Shown here piece by piece: positions 294-8,432 of a stretch of DNA of 8,454 nt. The DNA is from Escherichia phage If1: sequence record NC_001954.1; one strand, 5' to 3'. The notes below the pieces were generated by a model. It was not told where the DNA came from, made no database searches, and saw nothing but the letters and a program-made list of their open reading frames with translations. How positions within the stretch are numbered: position 1 is the stretch's first letter; each line of letters opens with the position of its first letter. A program made the translations under genes and the position numbers.

Positions 294-392
294 ATGTCTG
301 CAACAGACTTCGATTCTCTGTATCAATTAATATTTAATGCCGGGCTTGTTATTTGTTTTGGCCTTGGCGTTATTAGTGGTGGTCAAAGATGA
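294..392 (+). CDS. VII: Gene VII minor coat protein (virion tip)
   Basis: 32 aa, MSATDFDSLYQLIFNAGLVICFGLGVISGGQR. Close to M13 pVII as I recall it (MEQVADFDTIYQAMIQISVVLCFALGIIAGGQR). Not in the ORF track because it is short. Its stop overlaps the gene IX start (ATGA at 389-392). Confidence 0.85.
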   Translation: MSATDFDSLYQLIFNAGLVICFGLGVISGGQR

Positions 393-487
393 GTGCACTA
401 TCTTACTTCTTTGCTGCTTATTGTATTGGATGGGTTATATCCCATTCTATTCTGGTGTTTAAAAAACTATCTGAGGTTTCAACATGA
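389..487 (+). CDS. IX: Gene IX minor coat protein (virion tip)
   Basis: 32 aa, MSALSYFFAAYCIGWVISHSILVFKKLSEVST. Hydrophobic, same length and position as M13 pIX. ATGA overlap with gene VIII start (484-487). Confidence 0.8.
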   Translation: MSALSYFFAAYCIGWVISHSILVFKKLSEVST

Positions 488-708
488 AAAAATCAGTCGT
501 TGCAAAAATCATTGCTGGCTCAACTCTGGTTATTGGTTCATCTGCCTTTGCAGCAGATGATGCAACCAGTCAGGCTAAAGCTGCTTTTGATTCTTTAACC
601 GCTCAGGCAACCGAAATGTCCGGGTACGCATGGGCGCTTGTTGTTCTTGTTGTTGGTGCTACGGTGGGAATTAAGCTCTTTAAGAAATTTGTAAGCCGCG
701 CATCCTAA
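484..708 (+). CDS. VIII: Gene VIII major coat protein (procoat with signal peptide)
   Basis: 74 aa with signal peptide, acidic N-terminal segment (AADDATSQAKAAFDSL), hydrophobic core (YAWALVVLVVGATVGI) and basic C-terminus (KLFKKFVSRAS). Near-collinear with M13 pVIII as recalled. Confidence 0.95.
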   Translation: MKKSVVAKIIAGSTLVIGSSAFAADDATSQAKAAFDSLTAQATEMSGYAWALVVLVVGATVGIKLFKKFVSRAS

Positions 709-775: not shown

Positions 776-2158
776 ATGAAGAAAATAATTATTGCTTTAT
801 TTTTTGCTCCTTTCTTTACCCATGCAACTACAGACGCTGAATGTTTAAGTAAACCCGCATTTGATGGCACATTAAGTAATGTCTGGAAAGAAGGAGACTC
901 ACGTTATGCAAATTTTGAAAACTGCATTTACGAACTTTCGGGTATTGGTATCGGTTATGATAATGATACTTCGTGTAATGGGCACTGGACGCCTGTTCGT
1001 GCTGCTGATGGCTCTGGCAATGGTGGTGATGATAATTCATCTGGCGGGGGTAGTAATGGAGACTCAGGAAACAATTCTACGCCAGATACAGTAACACCCG
1101 GGCAGACTGTGAATTTACCGTCTGACTTATCTACTCTGAGCATTCCTGCTAATGTGGTTAAATCTGACTCAATAGGTTCTCAGTTTTCGCTTTATACAAA
1201 TGCCAGTTGCACAATGTGTTCAGGGTATTATCTGTCTAACAATGCTGATTCAATTGCCATTGCTAACATTACGGAAACGGTAAAGGCTGATTATAACCAG
1301 CCTGATATGTGGTTTGAGCAAACCGACAGTGACGGCAATCATGTTAAAATACTACAGAACAGTTATAAGGCTGTTTCTTATAATGTGGAATCAAAACAAT
1401 CTGACGTGAATAACCCGACATACATTAACTATTCTTATTCCGTTAATGTAAAACAAGTTTCCTATGACACATCAAATGTCTGCATAATGAACTGGGAAAC
1501 TTTTCAGAATAAGTGTGATGCCTCACGTGCTGTTTTGATAACTGATACGGTTACGCCATCTTATTCCAGAAATATAACGATACAGTCGAATATTAATTAT
1601 CAGGGTAGCAACGGGTCAGGCGGGTCAGGCGGGTCAGGCGGGTCAGGCAATGATGGTGGCGGAACCGGGAATAATGGCAACGGAACAGGTGATTTTGATT
1701 ACGTCAAAATGGCAAACGCCAATAAAGATGCACTGACTGAATCATTTGACTTGTCAGCTTTGCAGGCCGATACCGGGGCATCTCTTGATGGTTCTGTACA
1801 GGGAACACTGGATTCTTTAAGCGGGTTTTCCGACAGCATAGGTGGACTTGTTGGCAACGGCTCTGCAATTTCTGGTGAGTTTGCAGGTTCATCAGCTGCT
1901 ATGAATGCAATTGGTGAGGGTGACAAATCGCCTCTGCTGGACTCGCTCTCATTTCTGAAAGACGGATTATTTCCTGCCTTACCTGAATTTAAACAATGTA
2001 CACCATTTGTATTTGCTCCCGGCAAAGAGTACGAATTTATTATTGAGTGCAAATACATTGATATGTTTAAAGGGATTTTTGCTTTCATATTATATTTCTG
2101 GACATTCGTTACTGTTTACGATTCTTTTTCTGGAATATTACGTAAGGGAAGGGGATAA
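776..2158 (+). CDS. III: Gene III minor coat / adsorption protein
   Basis: 460 aa with N-terminal signal peptide. N1-like segment (AECLSKP...[16 protein letters not shown]) resembles the M13 g3p N1 domain. Two Gly/Ser-rich linkers. C-terminal domain ([18 protein letters not shown]...[44 protein letters not shown]) is collinear with the M13 g3p C-terminal anchor. Confidence 0.95.
1613..1648 (+). repeat. Perfect 4x tandem 9-bp repeat (GGGTCAGGC) encoding the (GSG)n linker within gene III
   Basis: Units at 1613-1621, 1622-1630, 1631-1639 and 1640-1648, read directly from the sequence. Confidence 0.9.
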
Positions 2159-2160
2159 CC

Positions 2161-2502
2161 ATGCCAGTTTTTCTGGGGCTTCCTGTTCTGGCAAGATTTA
2201 TTGGATGGCTTGCAGGTGCTCTTATTGCATACGTTGCAAAATTTTTCACATTGGGAATCGCCAGAATAGCACTTGCAATTTCGCTATTTCTTGGCCTTAT
2301 TATCGGTCTGAATGGATTGTTAGTTTCTTATCTTTCAGACCTTACTTCTGTATTGCCACCTGAAATTGCCAGCGCAGTCTCTTATGTTGTTCCGGCTAAT
2401 GCTGCGCCGTGTTTGTATGCGATTTTTTCTCTTAAAGCAGCAGTTTTTATTTTTGACGTTAAAGACAGAATTATAGGATATCTTGACTGGAATAAATCAT
2501 AA
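2161..2502 (+). CDS. VI: Gene VI minor coat protein
   Basis: 113 aa hydrophobic protein (MPVFLGLPVLARF...AISLFLGLIIGLN...YLDWNKS), collinear with M13 pVI. Stop TAA (2500-2502) shares one base with the gene I ATG (2502-2504). Confidence 0.9.
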   Translation: MPVFLGLPVLARFIGWLAGALIAYVAKFFTLGIARIALAISLFLGLIIGLNGLLVSYLSDLTSVLPPEIASAVSYVVPANAAPCLYAIFSLKAAVFIFDVKDRIIGYLDWNKS

Positions 2503-3563
2503 TGGCTGTATATGTCGTAACGGGAAAACTTGGTGCAGGTAAAACACTTGTCGCTGTCGGTAAAATCCAGGACAAAATTGTTTCTGGTTGCAGGGTGGCT
2601 ACGAATCTCGATTTGCGCATTCATAAGCTACCGAGAGTGGGTATATTTGCAAAGTCACCGGATGTAATACGGATACCTGATAAACCATCACTGGATGACT
2701 TACTGGCAATCGGGAGAGGCAATAATTCCTATGATGAAAATAAAAATGGATTACTGGTTCTTGATGAATGTGGGACATGGTTTAACTCACGCTCATGGGC
2801 TGATAAAGAAAGACAGTCCGTAATTAACTGGTTTTTACATGCCAGAAAACTGGGCTGGGATATTATTTTTCTTATTCAGGATTTATCCATCATGGATAAG
2901 CAAGCTCGTGTGGCACTGGCAGAGCATGTCGTTTATTGCCGACGCCTCGATAAAATCACAATTCCATTTATTGGCTCAATTTATAGTGTAATAACGGGAT
3001 CAAAACTTCCGCTACCAAAAGTACATGTCGGGATTGTTAAATATGGTGACTCTCCGCAGTCAATGACCGTAGAACGCTGGACTTATACGGGGCGTGACCT
3101 TTATGCCGCTTATGATACCAAACAGGCATTTTCAGATGCTTATGAGCATTCATCATTTTCATACCTGACACCATATCTTTCACATGGCAGGTATGCCGTA
3201 AAGAGGGACGCTACGTTTTATATGAGACTCACCAGAATCTATTTAAAGAAATATTCCAGAGTATTGTGCCTGTTTTGTGGTTTTGTATCAGCATTCACGT
3301 ACCTCAGTCTGTCCAAGCCGGAAGCGACACCTCAGATAAAACCAGTAACGACGCAGATTATCACATCCCGTTATAAACCATCAGAGTTGAGAATAACAAC
3401 ATCATATCGAATGGGAAATGCAGTTGGTTTTGAGTTTATGGATGCGAAGAAGCAAAAAATTGCATCTGACGATCTAATTAAAGACGGTTTTCGCATGGTC
3501 TATATAACACCTTGTTCGGTAGAGCTTATTAAGGATGGGAAACATGAAAAAGTTACTTGCTAG
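2502..3563 (+). CDS. I: Gene I assembly protein (Zot-like NTPase)
   Basis: 353 aa. Walker A GKLGAGKT near the N-terminus. Extensive collinearity with M13 pI (e.g. NGLLVLDECGTWFN, HARKLGWDIIFL, LTPYLSHGRY). Internal transmembrane segment (RVLCLFCGFVSAFTYLSL). Confidence 0.95.
   Translation: MAVYVVTGKLGAGKTLVAVGKIQDKIVSGCRVATNLDLRIHKLPRVGIFAKSPDVIRIPDKPSLDDLLAIGRGNNSYDENKNGLLVLDECGTWFNSRSWADKERQSVINWFLHARKLGWDIIFLIQDLSIMDKQARVALAEHVVYCRRLDKITIPFIGSIYSVITGSKLPLPKVHVGIVKYGDSPQSMTVERWTYTGRDLYAAYDTKQAFSDAYEHSSFSYLTPYLSHGRYAVKRDATFYMRLTRIYLKKYSRVLCLFCGFVSAFTYLSLSKPEATPQIKPVTTQIITSRYKPSELRITTSYRMGNAVGFEFMDAKKQKIASDDLIKDGFRMVYITPCSVELIKDGKHEKVTC
3222..3563 (+). CDS. XI: Gene XI product (in-frame internal start within gene I)
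   Basis: In-frame ATG at 3222 is codon 241 of gene I, the same relative position as the M13 pXI start (M13 ...KMKLTKIYLKK vs here ...YMRLTRIYLKK). Translation start not verifiable from sequence. Confidence 0.45.
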   Translation: MRLTRIYLKKYSRVLCLFCGFVSAFTYLSLSKPEATPQIKPVTTQIITSRYKPSELRITTSYRMGNAVGFEFMDAKKQKIASDDLIKDGFRMVYITPCSVELIKDGKHEKVTC

Positions 3564-4833
3564 TTTGCTTTGTGTATTGTCATTTCAGAGCTTTGCTATC
3601 CCTGTTGAACTGAATAATGCGCCAGTAAGGGAGTTTGTTTCATGGTATTCAAAAACAACCGGAAAGCCTGTGATTATTTCACCAGACGTAAAAGGGGAAA
3701 TTACGGTTTACTCAGCGGATGTCACCAAAGATGAACTGCCTCAGTTTTTTACTTCGGTTCTCCGGGCGAACGGTTTTGACCTCAGTCCGGGTAATCCTGC
3801 TGTGGTTCAAAAATTTAACCGTAATACGTATGAATATTCCGATTCTTTCTCAGAGCCGGTTCCGGCATCTTCTTATGATGGTGATGTTCCTCCTCCAACT
3901 GGAGACTTTTTCACTAAACCTGAGATACGTGCCAATTTGATTACTCAGACGTATCCGGTCAATAACGTCAGAGCAAAGGATCTCGCACCTGTTATTGATA
4001 TATTCCTGAAGGGGGAAAATATTGCTGGTACTAAAGTTTATCCTTTGATGGGGCGAATATTCTTGCTTGTAACGGCATCAGCATCACAACACAAAGAACT
4101 TGCAGCATTTTTTCCTTCTGTTGATGTGCCAAGAACTCAGGTTCTTGTTGAATCAGTCATTTTTGAAACAACGGCTTCCGATGGTTTTGATTTTTCATTT
4201 GCTGCGGGGGATCCTTCCGGCAGTCCGGTTGCGGGAGGGATCAATACTGACCGTCTCACGTCTGTTTTATCCAGCACTGGCGGTTCCTTTGGTATTTTTA
4301 ACGGGAACATTCTGGGGCTTAGCCTGAAAGCGCTTGAAACATCGAGTAAATCAACGCTTTTATCAATGCCACGCATTCTGACGATGTCAGGTCAACCAGG
4401 AACATTTACAGCAGGGCAAAATGTTCCTTTTGTGACGGGGCGGGTTACGGGAGAAGCTGCAAATGTTAACAATCCATTCCAGACGATCGAACGTCATGAT
4501 GTGGGGATCTCACTGAAGGTTGTTCCGGTCGTGACACCCGGAGGATTGTTAATCATGGATGTTTCGACAAATGCGGATAGTATTTCTGATTCGCAAACGG
4601 CTTCTGACATCATCACAAATACACGCTCAATTTCGACAACCGTTCAGCTAAAATCAGGCCAGACAGTTCTGCTTGGCGGGATGGTAGATAACAGGGAAAG
4701 CGACAGTGATTCATCTGTACCGTGGGTATCAAAAATTCCCTTAATTGGTGCGCTTTTCACGTCCAAAAGCTCAAATGCCAACAAGCGCACGCTGTACATT
4801 CTCATTCGCGCCCGCGTCGTTAACCTGCTTTAA
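3544..4833 (+). CDS. IV: Gene IV secretin (virion export channel)
   Basis: 429 aa from ATG 3544 (MKKLLASLLCVLSFQSFA signal peptide), with AAGGA at 3530-3534 upstream. The ORF track opens at 3535 (432 aa). Strong collinearity with M13 pIV, including the secretin C-domain (VPFVTGRVTGEAANVNNPFQTIERHDVGISLKV...SKIPLIGALF). Confidence 0.95.
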   Translation: MKKLLASLLCVLSFQSFAIPVELNNAPVREFVSWYSKTTGKPVIISPDVKGEITVYSADVTKDELPQFFTSVLRANGFDLSPGNPAVVQKFNRNTYEYSDSFSEPVPASSYDGDVPPPTGDFFTKPEIRANLITQTYPVNNVRAKDLAPVIDIFLKGENIAGTKVYPLMGRIFLLVTASASQHKELAAFFPSVDVPRTQVLVESVIFETTASDGFDFSFAAGDPSGSPVAGGINTDRLTSVLSSTGGSFGIFNGNILGLSLKALETSSKSTLLSMPRILTMSGQPGTFTAGQNVPFVTGRVTGEAANVNNPFQTIERHDVGISLKVVPVVTPGGLLIMDVSTNADSISDSQTASDIITNTRSISTTVQLKSGQTVLLGGMVDNRESDSDSSVPWVSKIPLIGALFTSKSSNANKRTLYILIRARVVNLL

Positions 4834-4929: not shown

Positions 4930-4947
4930 ATCCTGTTTTCACAGGAT
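4930..4947 (+). other. Stem-loop in the gene IV-proximal intergenic region (candidate packaging-signal or minus-strand-origin structure)
   Basis: ATCCTGT(4930-4936)-TTTC-ACAGGAT(4941-4947), a perfect 7-bp stem with a tetraloop and no following T-tract. Confidence 0.35.
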
Positions 4948-5310: not shown

Positions 5311-5329
5311 CTTAACTTCCAAAGGGTAC

Positions 5330-5379
5330 TCCCGCCGACATAAGGCGGGAGGGGAATTTGGACGGGCTTGAAAAGCCCG
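5330..5379 (+). repeat. Left-end subterminal hairpins of the IS (candidate TnpA recognition structures)
   Basis: Hairpin 1: TCCCGCC(5330-5336)-GACATAA-GGCGGGA(5344-5350). Hairpin 2: CGGGCTT(5363-5369)-GAA-AAGCCCG(5373-5379). They lie just downstream of the tnpA stop (5388-5390 on the minus strand) and are separated by a G-rich motif GGGAGGGGAA. Confidence 0.5.
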
Positions 5380-5387
5380 AAGGGTGA

Positions 5388-5768
5388 TCAGCCACGCTGA
5401 TGTTGAATGTATTGCCTAACAACTTCCAGCGGCGCACCTCCGCAGGAGCCAGCAAAGTATGACCTAGACCAGAGCACGGCTTTTCCGTATGCCCCCCGCA
5501 AATCAAGAAATTCGTTTCGCAGACGGCGGGATGTCACTGCTTTCAGTGAGTTAACCAGTACCGAAAGCTGCACTGTTGGTGGGTATTCGATCAGCATGTG
5601 GACATCATCGTACGTCTCCGTTACTTTCTTTAAGTTCCTCGCCCCAAAATCACGGCAGCACTTCTGCCTGCATACTGATGAAATGGCTGCACAGTGTAAC
5701 TCTCCCAGTATCTTTCGACGGTATTTTGTTACAAAGACGAAGATGAACATGCAAAAGGAAGGCAGCAT
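5388..5768 (-). CDS. tnpA: IS200/IS605-family Y1 (HuH) transposase TnpA
   Basis: 126 aa from ATG (reverse complement of 5766-5768); the track ORF opens at TTG 5831. Core motifs present: ...FVTKYRRK..., ...DDVHMLIEYPP... (HuH-region) and ...LWSRSYFAGSCGGAPLEVVRQYIQHQ (catalytic Tyr region). The first His of the HuH motif reads as Asp (D-V-H). Confidence 0.85.
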   Translation of the reverse strand: MLPSFCMFIFVFVTKYRRKILGELHCAAISSVCRQKCCRDFGARNLKKVTETYDDVHMLIEYPPTVQLSVLVNSLKAVTSRRLRNEFLDLRGAYGKAVLWSRSYFAGSCGGAPLEVVRQYIQHQRG

Positions 5769-5852
5769 GTCTTGAACGATTGATTTTATATTTTTGCATT
5801 GAGGTTGGCCGTAAAAGCAGTAATATTGCAAGAAAATCTAGCTACACACTGA

Positions 5853-6143
5853 ATGATGATGCTAATCCTGAAAGCCTACAAATTCAGACTGGAACCAACG
5901 CCTGAACAGTCGCAGCGTTTGCGGCAGTTATGCGGTTGCGCCCGTTTTGTCTGGAATTTAGGTCTTGCGGAGACAAAGCGCATACTTGACTCAGGCGAAA
6001 AGTTACCTTCGGCTTTCGAGTTGAACCGGAGTGATTACAGTGTGGAAAAAAATGCCGGAATACATCTTCTTACAGGATGCCTATACCGACAATCTGCAAC
6101 AAAAGCTGAAAGACCTGCATACCGCATGGAAACGTTGTTTTGA
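5853..6143 (+). CDS. tnpB: tnpB N-terminal fragment (frame 0), out of frame with the main tnpB body
   Basis: Starts ATGATGATG. MMMLILKAYKFRLEPTPEQSQRLRQLCGCARFVWNLGLAE matches the canonical TnpB/OrfB N-terminal signature (KAYKFRLxPTxEQ...GCARFVWN). Only about the first 60 aa look genuine; the rest of the frame runs to a stop at 6141-6143. Confidence 0.7.
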   Translation: MMMLILKAYKFRLEPTPEQSQRLRQLCGCARFVWNLGLAETKRILDSGEKLPSAFELNRSDYSVEKNAGIHLLTGCLYRQSATKAERPAYRMETLF

Positions 6144-7086
6144 TAAAAAGCTCGCAGCTAAGGCTCCGGTATGGAAACGAAAAAATGAGGGCAGAGACTC
6201 AATCCGTTTTGTGAACTTTGAGAAATATTGCTGCCTTGAAAATCGCAGAGTGAAGCTACCGTCAGGTCTTGGGTGGGTAAAATTCCGGCAATCTCAACGT
6301 GTGAACGGTAAAATCAAAAATGCGACAATCAGTCAGTTAGCGGGACAGTGGTATATCTCGTTTCAGGTTGAAATTGAAACGGCAGAACCAAATCACACAA
6401 GCACAACGATAGTCGGTCTGGATGCTGGCGTGGCTAAACTCGCCACGCTGTCAGATGGCACAGTCTTTGAACCTGTAAACAGTTTTCAGAAAAACCAGAA
6501 GAAGCTGGCGAGACTTCAGCGACAGTTAAGCCGCAAGGTCAAATTCAGCAACAACTGGCAGAAGCAGAAACGCAAAATACAGTGTCTGCATTCCCGTATC
6601 GCAAATATCCGCAGAGACTACCTTCATAAAGTCACAACGACCGTCAGCAAAAACCACGCAATGATAGTCATTGAGGATTTGAAGGTCAGCAACATGTCAA
6701 AGTCAGCAGCGGGTACGGTCAGCCAGCCGGGGCGCAATGTCCGGGCAAAATCAGGTTTAAACCGTTCGATACTGGATCAGGGCTGGTATGAAATGCGCCG
6801 CCAGCTTGAGTACAAACAGCTCTGGCGTGGAGGTCAGGTGCTTGCTGTTCCGCCAGCGTACACAAGCCAGCGTTGCGCGTGCTGTGGTCATACAGCGAAA
6901 GAAAACCGCCTGTCACAAAGTCAATTCAGATGCCAGGTATGTGGATATACAGCGAACGCCGATGTAAATGGCGCTCGTAACATTTTAGCGGCGGGGCACG
7001 CCGTACTTGCCTGTGGAGGGACGATGCAGTCAGACCGCCCGTTGAAGCAGGAACCAGACGCTGAGCAATCAGCCGTCACCCACTAA
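6031..7086 (+). CDS. tnpB: tnpB main body: RuvC-like, zinc-finger RNA-guided endonuclease (IS605 OrfB / OMEGA TnpB)
   Basis: 351 aa in frame +1 relative to the N-terminal fragment. RuvC-I (IVGLDAGV), RuvC-II (MIVIEDLKV), zinc finger (CACCGH...CQVCGY) and RuvC-III ([10 protein letters not shown]) all present. Frame opens just after TGA at 6022-6024, with first start-like codon GTG at 6031. Combined with the N-terminal fragment the protein would be about 410 aa. Confidence 0.85.
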
Positions 7087-7091
7087 TGGGA

Positions 7092-7132
7092 ATCCCCCTC
7101 CTGAGTCACGAAGTGCGAAGGTGGGGGAGGAT
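7092..7132 (+). repeat. Right-end imperfect palindrome / G-rich motif of the IS (candidate RE structure and omega-RNA scaffold 3' region)
   Basis: ATCCCCCTCC (7092-7101) ... GGTGGGGGAGGAT (7120-7132), 6-13 nt after the tnpB stop. It can form an imperfect stem with bulges. It resembles the left-end motif GGCGGGAGGGGAA at 5344-5356. Confidence 0.4.
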
Positions 7133-7140
7133 GTCAATCC

Positions 7141-7315
7141 ACACCTCAGTAGTTTTCTGCTGGCATAAAGCTAAACACTTATGCTCTCCAGTCGTATTCT
7201 GCCGTCATTATAGTTAAACACTTATGCGCTCATATCATTATGCTTGTATACATGCGTAATGCGTGATAGATTTTTGTCATTTCGTAACTGCATACATGTA
7301 TAGGGTGAGTGTTCA
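7141..7315 (+). promoter_or_regulatory. Gene II-proximal intergenic region: candidate plus-strand origin, gene II promoter and operator
   Basis: AT-rich. 13-bp direct repeat TAAACACTTATGC at 7172-7184 and 7215-7227. Palindromes TGTATACA (7245-7252) and ATACATGTAT (7292-7301). Possible -35 TTGTCA (7274-7279). SD-like GGGTGAG before the ATG at 7316. Same position as the plus-strand origin and gene II promoter in Ff phages. Confidence 0.45.
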
Positions 7316-7537
7316 ATGTTTTTTGACTGGCTGACTATTGAACAGGATTTTGGCTTTCAGCTACCGATTTTGAGTGATGTTGCCTATCAGCGCATCCACC
7401 TCGAAAGCGGGGAAGCGTCAGCTCTGAGTCAGCCAACTTTTCAGCACAAAGGATCTTTTTGTGATGGTTGTTTCGATCTCTATCCGAGGCTCATTGCTGA
7501 AAGTCTCTGGAAATCCTTCCCGGTGGGGGCGTCTTGA
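7316..7537 (+). CDS. II: Gene II replication initiator, N-terminal segment (frame 2), ahead of an apparent frameshift
   Basis: MFFDWLTIEQDFGFQLPILSDVAYQRIHLESGEASALSQPTFQHKGSF... Start and N-terminal pattern resemble M13 pII (MIDMLVLRLPF...). The genuine part probably ends at F48 (7457-7459); the track ORF continues out of frame to 7537. Confidence 0.7.
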   Translation: MFFDWLTIEQDFGFQLPILSDVAYQRIHLESGEASALSQPTFQHKGSFCDGCFDLYPRLIAESLWKSFPVGAS

Positions 7538-8432
7538 TAATTTATTTGGCCTTCCAACTTTGGATTCCTGTGTATCGGTTTTCAATACGATCCTTGCTGA
7601 AATAGGTTTACCTCAGTTTACGAAATGTAAGAGGCTTATGCCCGGCCAGGCAAAAGAGAATGAGAAAGCACCTCTTGTTGCTGACGGTGCAATTATTAAA
7701 GAAGTACATATCACCTCGAACAGGGCGGCAGGTAAGGGGAATGAAGATGACTATATTTCAGGTTTATCTACGCAACCCTACAGGAACAGCGTTCCACGGC
7801 TACACTCCAATGGAAAATCCGTTGACTGGCTGTCTAAAAAAGGCAATGTAAACCTCATATATCCAACGGTTTACAATAAAGCTCATGAAATGGAACTCCA
7901 TTCTTTGACAAAGATAAAGAATCGTTTTTCCGAACAATCTCGGGAATACAATTACCTACTCGATATTATATCTTTCTGCAAAGAGAATGGGGTCGTAAGG
8001 TTTGAGCAAAAGCTGAAATCCAGATTTTTGCAAAAGAATGCGCTCAATTACTGGGGGCTTTCTGATTATTCCATTTTAAATAAGTTACATTCTGATTTTC
8101 TTGAACTTGATAAAAAGTTATCGGTGAATGCTATGGACTTTGAAACTATCAGTGATCATCTTGTAAGTAGTGGGGTTGTTGAAACCACCCGTGCAGCAAA
8201 TACTACCGCAATGTATGCAATACAGTGGTTTCACGGTCATGTATTTGACTTCAACAAAAAACAGGTTCAGACACATCGGGCGCGGTTACGAAAAATTGGT
8301 ATCGACATTGCGCAGAAATGCAATGTTTCTAAATTCTCTCCTGTGATTGTGAAACAAACACGGGAAATTAAGGTGCAGGAGTGCGTTGCACCATCATGGT
8401 ATGTACGTCCGTCACATTTACGCGTTGCATAG
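7461..8432 (+). CDS. II: Gene II replication initiator (rolling-circle nickase), main body (frame 0)
   Basis: 323 aa. SISIRGSLLKVSGNPSRWG aligns with M13 pII CVEIKASPAKVLQGHNVFG, and RFEQKLKSRFLQKNAL with M13 RFEARIKTRYLKSF. Stop TAG at 8430-8432. Frame opens after TGA at 7425-7427. Confidence 0.9.
   Translation: MMVVSISIRGSLLKVSGNPSRWGRLDNLFGLPTLDSCVSVFNTILAEIGLPQFTKCKRLMPGQAKENEKAPLVADGAIIKEVHITSNRAAGKGNEDDYISGLSTQPYRNSVPRLHSNGKSVDWLSKKGNVNLIYPTVYNKAHEMELHSLTKIKNRFSEQSREYNYLLDIISFCKENGVVRFEQKLKSRFLQKNALNYWGLSDYSILNKLHSDFLELDKKLSVNAMDFETISDHLVSSGVVETTRAANTTAMYAIQWFHGHVFDFNKKQVQTHRARLRKIGIDIAQKCNVSKFSPVIVKQTREIKVQECVAPSWYVRPSHLRVA
8133..8432 (+). CDS. X: Gene X product (in-frame internal start within gene II)
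   Basis: In-frame ATG at 8133 (MDFETISDHL...) preceded by GGTGA at 8123-8127. 99 aa. Same relative position and size as M13 pX (111 aa). Confidence 0.5.
   Translation: MDFETISDHLVSSGVVETTRAANTTAMYAIQWFHGHVFDFNKKQVQTHRARLRKIGIDIAQKCNVSKFSPVIVKQTREIKVQECVAPSWYVRPSHLRVA

Follow-up and report, generated by a model that had tools for sequence, protein, structure and literature searches.

Gene III of the filamentous Escherichia phage If1, which codes for the attachment protein g3p, contains a perfect tandem array of a 9-nt unit, and the number of units in this array ranges from 2 to at least 14 among If1 and its relatives. We conclude that the array is, very probably, an in-frame, slippage-driven VNTR in the flexible distal linker of g3p that alters the length of a tether only. 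The window analyzed here is the whole If1 genome (NC_001954.1, 8454 nt).

Results

The array consists of identical, in-frame units

The raw sequence of gene III was found to hold four GGGTCAGGC units with zero mismatches (Table 1). The first base of the array is a first codon position of the g3p ORF, and each unit is read GGG-TCA-GGC (Gly-Ser-Gly). Tandem Repeats Finder reported the array with a period of 9, 4.1 copies, 100% matches and a score of 74, its periodicity reaching one base leftward (1612–1648), and ranked it as the top-scoring tandem repeat of the whole genome. By chance, ~5e-13 perfect 36-nt runs of period 9 are expected in 8454 nt. Based on the genome's own codon usage, the probability that a (GSG)4 peptide would use the same three codons in three more units is only ~3e-6 to 5e-6, so the identity of the units at the nucleotide level is no by-product of the protein sequence. 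That identity is real and needs an explanation at the level of DNA. The codon listing showed mixed Gly and Ser codons elsewhere in both Gly-rich linkers of g3p.

Nothing credible was found on the opposite strand or in the other frames across the array. For a 26-aa ORF on the minus strand (1600–1680) and for the reverse complement, no structure was predicted.

Table 1. Features of the If1 genome considered in this study
Feature	Position	Strand	Basis or remark
g7p	294–392		
Phage_coatGP8, major coat protein	484–708		Pfam
Gene III, attachment protein g3p, 460 aa plus stop	776–2158	+	ORF list; Pfam PF05357; PDB matches; tblastn to Ff gene III
Signal peptide and N1 (TolA-binding) domain, residues 1–76	776–1003	+	Pfam (residues 1–61); residues 17–81 against 2x9a
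Proximal (first) Gly-rich linker, residues 77–104	1004–1087	+	Codon listing; pLDDT 21–23
Distal (second) Gly-rich linker, residues 277–305, GSN-(GSG)4 plus 14 residues	1604–1690	+	Between N2 and C-terminal domain; HMMER against 8b3o
(GGGTCAGGC)x4 array, in frame	1613–1648	+	Codes for (GSG)4, g3p residues 280–291
C-terminal (virion-anchor) domain of g3p, residues 306–460, from DFDY	1691–2155	+	Alignment to fd C domain, 8b3o
DUF5455 at g6 position	2161–2502		Pfam
Zot / g1p	2502–3563		Pfam
Secretin / g4p	3535–4833		Pfam
g2p	7461–8432		Pfam

The array lies in the distal linker of g3p

Several lines of evidence identify the ORF as gene III. The N1 domain was matched by PF05357 (Phage_Coat_A) at residues 1–61 with E=1.2e-31 and 108.6 bits against a cutoff of 20.8, and residues 17–81 are identical at 64 of 65 positions to the g3p chain of PDB entries 2x9a and 2x9b, the former from the fd/IF1 paper of Lorenz et al. 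(2011). The gene order g8-g3-g6-g1-g4 is present. HMMER aligned residues 277–457 to residues 228–403 of fd g3p (8b3o) with a domain E of 1.7e-36; in this alignment the fd GGGSE linker stands opposite the stretch that contains GSN(GSG)4, and a 13-residue stretch stands opposite fd GDFDYEKMANANK.

The domain scheme of the protein is N1-linker-N2-linker-C (PMC10175506, PMC12477597), and in If1 two Gly/Ser/Asn-rich stretches separate three conserved blocks of g3p. In phage f1 the C domain starts at mature residue 257, past the second glycine-rich linker (PMC10175506); in If1 the GDFDY motif that opens this domain lies ~15 residues downstream of the array. An alignment of homologues with 40–98% identity placed conserved blocks on either side of a length-variable Gly/Ser/Asn-rich segment at the array region, the C-terminal domain being conserved throughout. 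The proximal linker has mixed codons, no nucleotide repeat and a constant length among relatives. An AlphaFold model built from a six-sequence alignment, of low overall quality (mean pLDDT 46.5), had beta-rich N1 and N2 domains and no secondary structure at residues 271–308 (pLDDT ~23–35), a result that is consistent with a disordered distal linker and goes no further. An earlier note, made from this DNA without database searches, had described a perfect fourfold 9-bp repeat coding for a GSG linker between domains of the gene III product. The repeat and the gene assignment are both confirmed, and the alignment to fd allows the location to be given more exactly as the distal linker, between N2 and the C-terminal domain.

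Copy number varies widely among relatives of If1

A census of copy number was drawn from isolate genomes and from JGI/ENA metagenomes and IMG/VR, the last two of which were scanned with the left flank of the array or with five units. It comprised 30 full-length copies of gene III, including that of the If1 genome, and two contigs whose ends fall within the array. The full-length copies had n = 2, 3, 4, 5, 6, 7, 8 and 10, and the two truncated arrays had no fewer than 8 and 14 units, respectively (Table 2); these numbers were taken from assemblies, in which arrays longer than the assembler k could be mis-sized. The array was always of the form (GGGTCAGGC)n and was perfect in 29 of the 30 full-length alleles and in both arrays at contig ends, a single GGGTCAGGA unit being the sole variant in the census. 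In all 30 full-length alleles the ORF was intact with a single terminal stop.

Table 2. Number of repeat units (n) in gene III of If1 and its relatives
n	Genomes or contigs	Remark
2	L001–L005	4 samples
3	L006–L015	9 samples
4	If1 genome (NC_001954.1), L044/L045	
5	L036, L043	
6	L046, L038	L038 with one GGGTCAGGA unit
7	L027, L040	
8	L037	
10	L039, L041/L042	
at least 8	L028	Contig end inside array
at least 14	L034	Contig end inside array

The same variation was apparent in protein data. Among protein clusters the closest was P0001, which is 98% identical to If1 g3p and has 95 members from assemblies of Enterobacter, Salmonella, Citrobacter and E. coli. Its full-length members have 452 and 455 residues versus 460 in If1 because they carry (GSG)2 or (GSG)3. 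The exact 460-aa If1 g3p had no entry in the protein collection. An IMG/VR record, UViG_638275991_000001 (8454 nt), matched the If1 genome base for base. Megablast of gene III against collections of phages, plasmids and complete E. coli genomes gave no match, the IF1 record itself being absent from them, nor did species-representative genomes scanned with the left flank and with the array plus right flank. The IF1-like prophage is accessory and is lacking from the representative genomes.

Ten viral contigs had five or more units, and six of these were left out of the census as they belong to unrelated high-GC phages with the 9-mer in non-coding DNA. Those contigs (L029–L033 and L035) have 9–14 perfect tandem copies of GGGTCAGGC (e.g., L030, 4611–4736), which adjoin a second 9-nt array, and no credible ORF was seen in that DNA. 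The match to the If1 unit is probably coincidental.

The array changes faster than the rest of the phage

Comparison of gene III copies with and without the array revealed how its turnover relates to point substitution. Once the array was taken out, 20 copies collapsed into one haplotype, identical over 1341 nt, yet this haplotype occurred with n = 2, 3, 8 and 10. If1 gene III (n = 4) differs from it at two sites, one SNP and a 6-nt indel, and the latter, specific to If1, was the only length change in gene III outside the array when 29 relatives were compared. L036 (n = 5) and L040 (n = 7) had no difference in gene III outside the array.

Longer alignments gave the same result. L003 (n = 2) and L006 (n = 3), which come from different samples, differed over 15,000 nt by 0 mismatches and one 9-nt gap, and L001 and L007 differed over 17.3 kb by 2 mismatches and a 9-nt gap; L014 (n = 3) and L037 (n = 8) had 2 mismatches in an alignment of 9.2 kb. 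At each of two different chromosomal insertion sites, alleles of n = 2 and of n = 3 were present. In lineages that have diverged by 1.6–4.1% from If1 gene III, 450 nt of array contained 1 substitution versus ~14 expected at the rate of the flanks.

These data indicate that the array is the fastest-changing site of the IF1-like phage and is kept homogeneous, as expected under gain and loss of units. The earlier note had suggested that the length of the linker may vary from isolate to isolate, and had considered that an invariant number across isolates would speak against its reading. The number was not invariant, and the same GGGTCAGGC unit was found throughout. Its suggestion of recent expansion also holds, as backbones with 0–2 substitutions in 9–17 kb differ in copy number.

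Assemblies break at the array

Nine of the 15 members listed for cluster P0001 (95 in all) were fragments cut at the array. N-terminal g3p fragments of 275–281 residues end at the array or just inside it, and C-terminal fragments of 166 residues begin directly after it. Samples with contigs broken at the array include GCA_029142585.1, GCA_021067925.1, SRR28856313 and ERR9968930. In the DNA of SKESA-type NCBI assemblies, Logan and MEGAHIT, contigs stop at ...CAGGGTAGCA, ...AGCAA, ...AACGGGTC, ...GGGTCA or ...GGGTCAGG, and others start at ATGATGGTGG, right after the array. At the start of one contig, L025, three clean units are preceded by degenerate sequence that resembles the unit but is out of frame. 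Database entries for “partial” g3p of 275–281 aa or 166 aa (L016–L025, L052–L054) thus represent contigs cut at the repeat and not truncated genes.

In a de Bruijn simulation, the array became a cycle when n was at least 4 at k = 21, at least 5 at k = 31, at least 12 at k = 99 and at least 16 at k = 127. A plain k-mer cycle predicts that k−1 bases of the array are kept, and real contigs keep −2 to +9, so the cycle accounts only partly for the contig ends. From the breaks we infer that the samples concerned carry long or mixed arrays; because contigs break at the array, long alleles will be under-represented among those that could be sized. A coexisting zero-copy deletion allele (AGCAATGATGG, via GCAA microhomology on both sides) was considered as the cause of the breaks and rejected; it was absent from IMG/VR.

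IF1-like prophages and other differences in the If1 genome

During these comparisons we noted that IF1-like phages are present as integrated prophages at no fewer than 4 chromosomal sites in Enterobacter-type genomes (L001–L015, e.g., L002, L003, L008 and L009). Some are head-to-tail tandem dimers, in which the repeat number is equal in both copies. The size of the copy-number range, the wide occurrence of IF1-like prophages and the array as a breakpoint of assemblies were not foreseen in the earlier note.

The If1 genome is 99.2–99.7% identical to a prophage unit of ~9164 nt, minus ~2.5 kb of that unit. The junction in If1 is at ~4930–4932, and the missing segment corresponds to 6298–7527 and 14134 to ~15000 in L001; it contains a HicB-like gene and, on the minus strand, three genes whose products have 159, 122 (weak HTH_23) and 133 aa. 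Conversely, an insertion of ~1.82 kb in If1 (5311–7131) is absent from all prophage relatives. This insertion has a tnpB of the IS200/IS605 family split over two frames, without tnpA: HTH_OrfB_IS605 was matched in the ORF at 5853–6143, and OrfB_IS605 and a Cas12f1-like TNB domain in the ORF at 6031–7086. Other phage records contain insQ/IS605 copies with 91–97% identity to it. Judged by these alignments, laboratory IF1 seems to have been derived from a temperate inovirus by a deletion and an IS insertion.

Smaller features were also observed. An imperfect 43-nt x2 tandem repeat (7147–7231, 81%) adjoins the right end of the IS insertion, upstream of gene II, and may belong to a regulatory or origin region. 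The major coat protein gene has a perfect 2x 9-nt repeat, CTTGTTGTT (637–654), which is probably due to chance or a codon-level effect. At position 976 (g3p residue 67) If1 has TGT (Cys), whereas all 29 relatives and the crystallized N1 (2x9a) have TGG (Trp); Cys67 reflects either a mutation of the strain or a mistake in the old record. The 6-nt insertion TCGCTC at ~1942–1947, found in If1 only (1 of 30 gene III copies), adds Leu-Ser at g3p residues ~389–391, where the relatives have LLDSFLKD.

Discussion

Array turnover and its alternatives

We propose that the nascent and template strands would misalign by whole units at the identical 9-nt repeats, either during rolling-circle replication of the phage or during chromosomal replication of the prophage, and that units would be added or removed as a result. 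Frequent gain and loss would also keep the units identical to one another by concerted evolution. For long arrays, RecA-dependent unequal recombination may also contribute; contraction of the E. coli tolA repeat, reported at 6.9e-5, was shown to depend on RecA (PMC3477136). As a unit is three codons, the reading frame is kept at every change in copy number. The only thing to change would be the length of the Gly/Ser tether that joins the receptor-binding head (N1-N2) to the C domain anchored in the virion. The linker has 3 + 3n + 13 residues, i.e., ~22 residues at n = 2, 28 in If1 and at least 58 at n of at least 14. A disordered linker is likely to tolerate such variation, and an effect on the efficiency of infection, if any, would be quantitative and not on/off. 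Phase variation by a shift of frame or promoter spacing does not describe the array, as no frameshifted allele was seen among the 30 and the frame is never lost.

Could the differences in copy number be errors of assembly or sequencing, the true array being constant? Short-read assembly is error-prone at tandem repeats, and many contigs do break at this one. However, typical reads exceed the 91 nt of an n = 10 allele, and alleles up to this size have unique flanks on both sides. Individual alleles also recur in independent samples (n = 2 in 4 of them, n = 3 in 9) and with different assemblers, and both copies of tandem prophage dimers agree in n. In addition, the Sanger-era If1 sequence has n = 4. 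An artefact of this kind is thus highly improbable, the least likely of the explanations we considered. Nearly as improbable is that the array acts as a G-quadruplex in the packaged plus strand or the mRNA, affecting replication, packaging or translation, with polymerase stalling as the driver of instability. Four or more units do give plus-strand GGG tracts at 6-nt spacing, and the array is the only match in the genome to (G3+N1-7)3G3+, and the pattern was hit at 1603 and 1613, on the plus strand only. ViennaRNA with quadruplex energies put a G4 in the minimum-energy DNA fold at n of at least 4, and the error-like out-of-frame units of L025 are on the side where reads copied from a G-rich template would be expected to have them. 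The fold is predicted to be only marginally stable, however: ViennaRNA gave −2.7 kcal/mol for an isolated four-unit array, whose three loops are of 6 nt each. Alleles with n = 2 or n = 3, which are common, cannot form the motif from their units alone. An unconstrained copy number argues against a required cis element, and slippage at a perfect repeat needs no structure.

The alternative that deserves more weight, unlikely as we consider it, is that the array is a selected contingency locus whose repeat is kept pure since rapid and reversible tuning of the tether is adaptive. Such tuning may set how far N1-N2 can extend from the tip of the virion, first to contact the I-pilus and later to cross the envelope to TolA, and may be of benefit where hosts vary in the geometry of their envelope or the length of TolA. 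The unit is perfectly conserved in three lineages with 2–4% divergence of the flanks, the range of lengths is wide, and near-identical phages are found in hosts as varied as Enterobacter, Salmonella, Citrobacter and E. coli. The coreceptor TolA has an in-frame repeat of its own, with 8–16 units in 234 E. coli isolates, and altering that repeat lowers fd infection (PMC3477136); tolA alleles with 2 to 39 repeats were constructed in that study. Neutral turnover explains the purity equally well, however, and no correlation of n with host or site was seen, n = 2 and n = 3 being found in shared hosts and at one chromosomal site on the same backbone. We regard as slightly more doubtful still the idea that tethers of ~22 to >58 residues ensure that some variants reach a length-variable TolA or work with the I-pilus across enterobacterial hosts. 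If selected tuning were true, it would amount to a repeat-against-repeat arms race between the tether of the phage and the spacer of its coreceptor.

Slippage of an in-frame array that changes only tether length remains our preferred reading, and the array has several practical consequences. It explains the frequent fragmentation of gene III of IF1-like genomes in short-read assemblies, and “partial g3p” entries of ~275–281 or 166 residues should be read as assembly breaks when such genomes are annotated. The 9-nt VNTR is a simple natural typing marker for IF1-like inoviruses, which are widespread as prophages in Enterobacter, Salmonella, Citrobacter and E. coli. Its alleles also form a natural series for the effect of tether length on pilus-dependent infection, for which only engineered Ff mutants were previously available. 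In phage display with IF1 receptor-binding domains, the array is a recombination-prone segment and should be recoded.

Comparison with known systems

No published account of polymorphism in the IF1 linker was found in the literature searched, whose incomplete coverage makes this weak evidence. The closest system is the distal linker of g3p (pIII) in the Ff phages M13, fd and f1, which, like that of IF1, is a Gly/Ser-rich tether between N2 and CT coded by a tandem DNA repeat. The M13 unit is 15 nt (GGGSE), with 4.5 copies that are 90% identical, whereas the IF1 unit is 9 nt (GSG) and 100% identical. Both Ff linkers are nucleotide repeats, and the proximal linker of IF1 is not. Natural Ff phages isolated in recent years also differ in the distal linker, FfLilac having one more GGGSE than M13 and FfLavender differing by one residue, but copy number varied by only +/-1 unit among the Ff records examined, compared with 2 to at least 14 units in IF1-like phages. 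In more remote relatives the distal linker is made of other tandem units, 15 nt x4.6 (94%) in L050 and 45 nt x3 (76%) in L051, a Photorhabdus prophage. Building the distal linker of g3p by tandem duplication is thus a general habit of the family, in which the IF1 lineage is extreme in purity and range.

The repeat in domain II of E. coli tolA (Zhou et al. 2012, PMC3477136) is likewise an in-frame VNTR that changes length only, in an extended spacer of an envelope-spanning protein. It is polymorphic among isolates (8–16 units) and belongs to the same infection pathway, TolA being the coreceptor of g3p N1 (PMC3477136). It differs in being in a host gene, in having imperfect 15/18-nt units and in coding for a Lys/Ala-rich helix, in contrast to the disordered Gly/Ser linker of IF1. 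Simple-sequence contingency loci of bacteria share with the IF1 array a hypermutable repeat in the gene of a surface or receptor-contact protein, and in both, units are gained and lost at a much higher rate than bases are substituted. Those loci switch on and off by frameshift, whereas the IF1 array modulates length only. Overall, the g3p array of IF1 is a VNTR of a familiar kind whose natural alleles span an unusually wide range.
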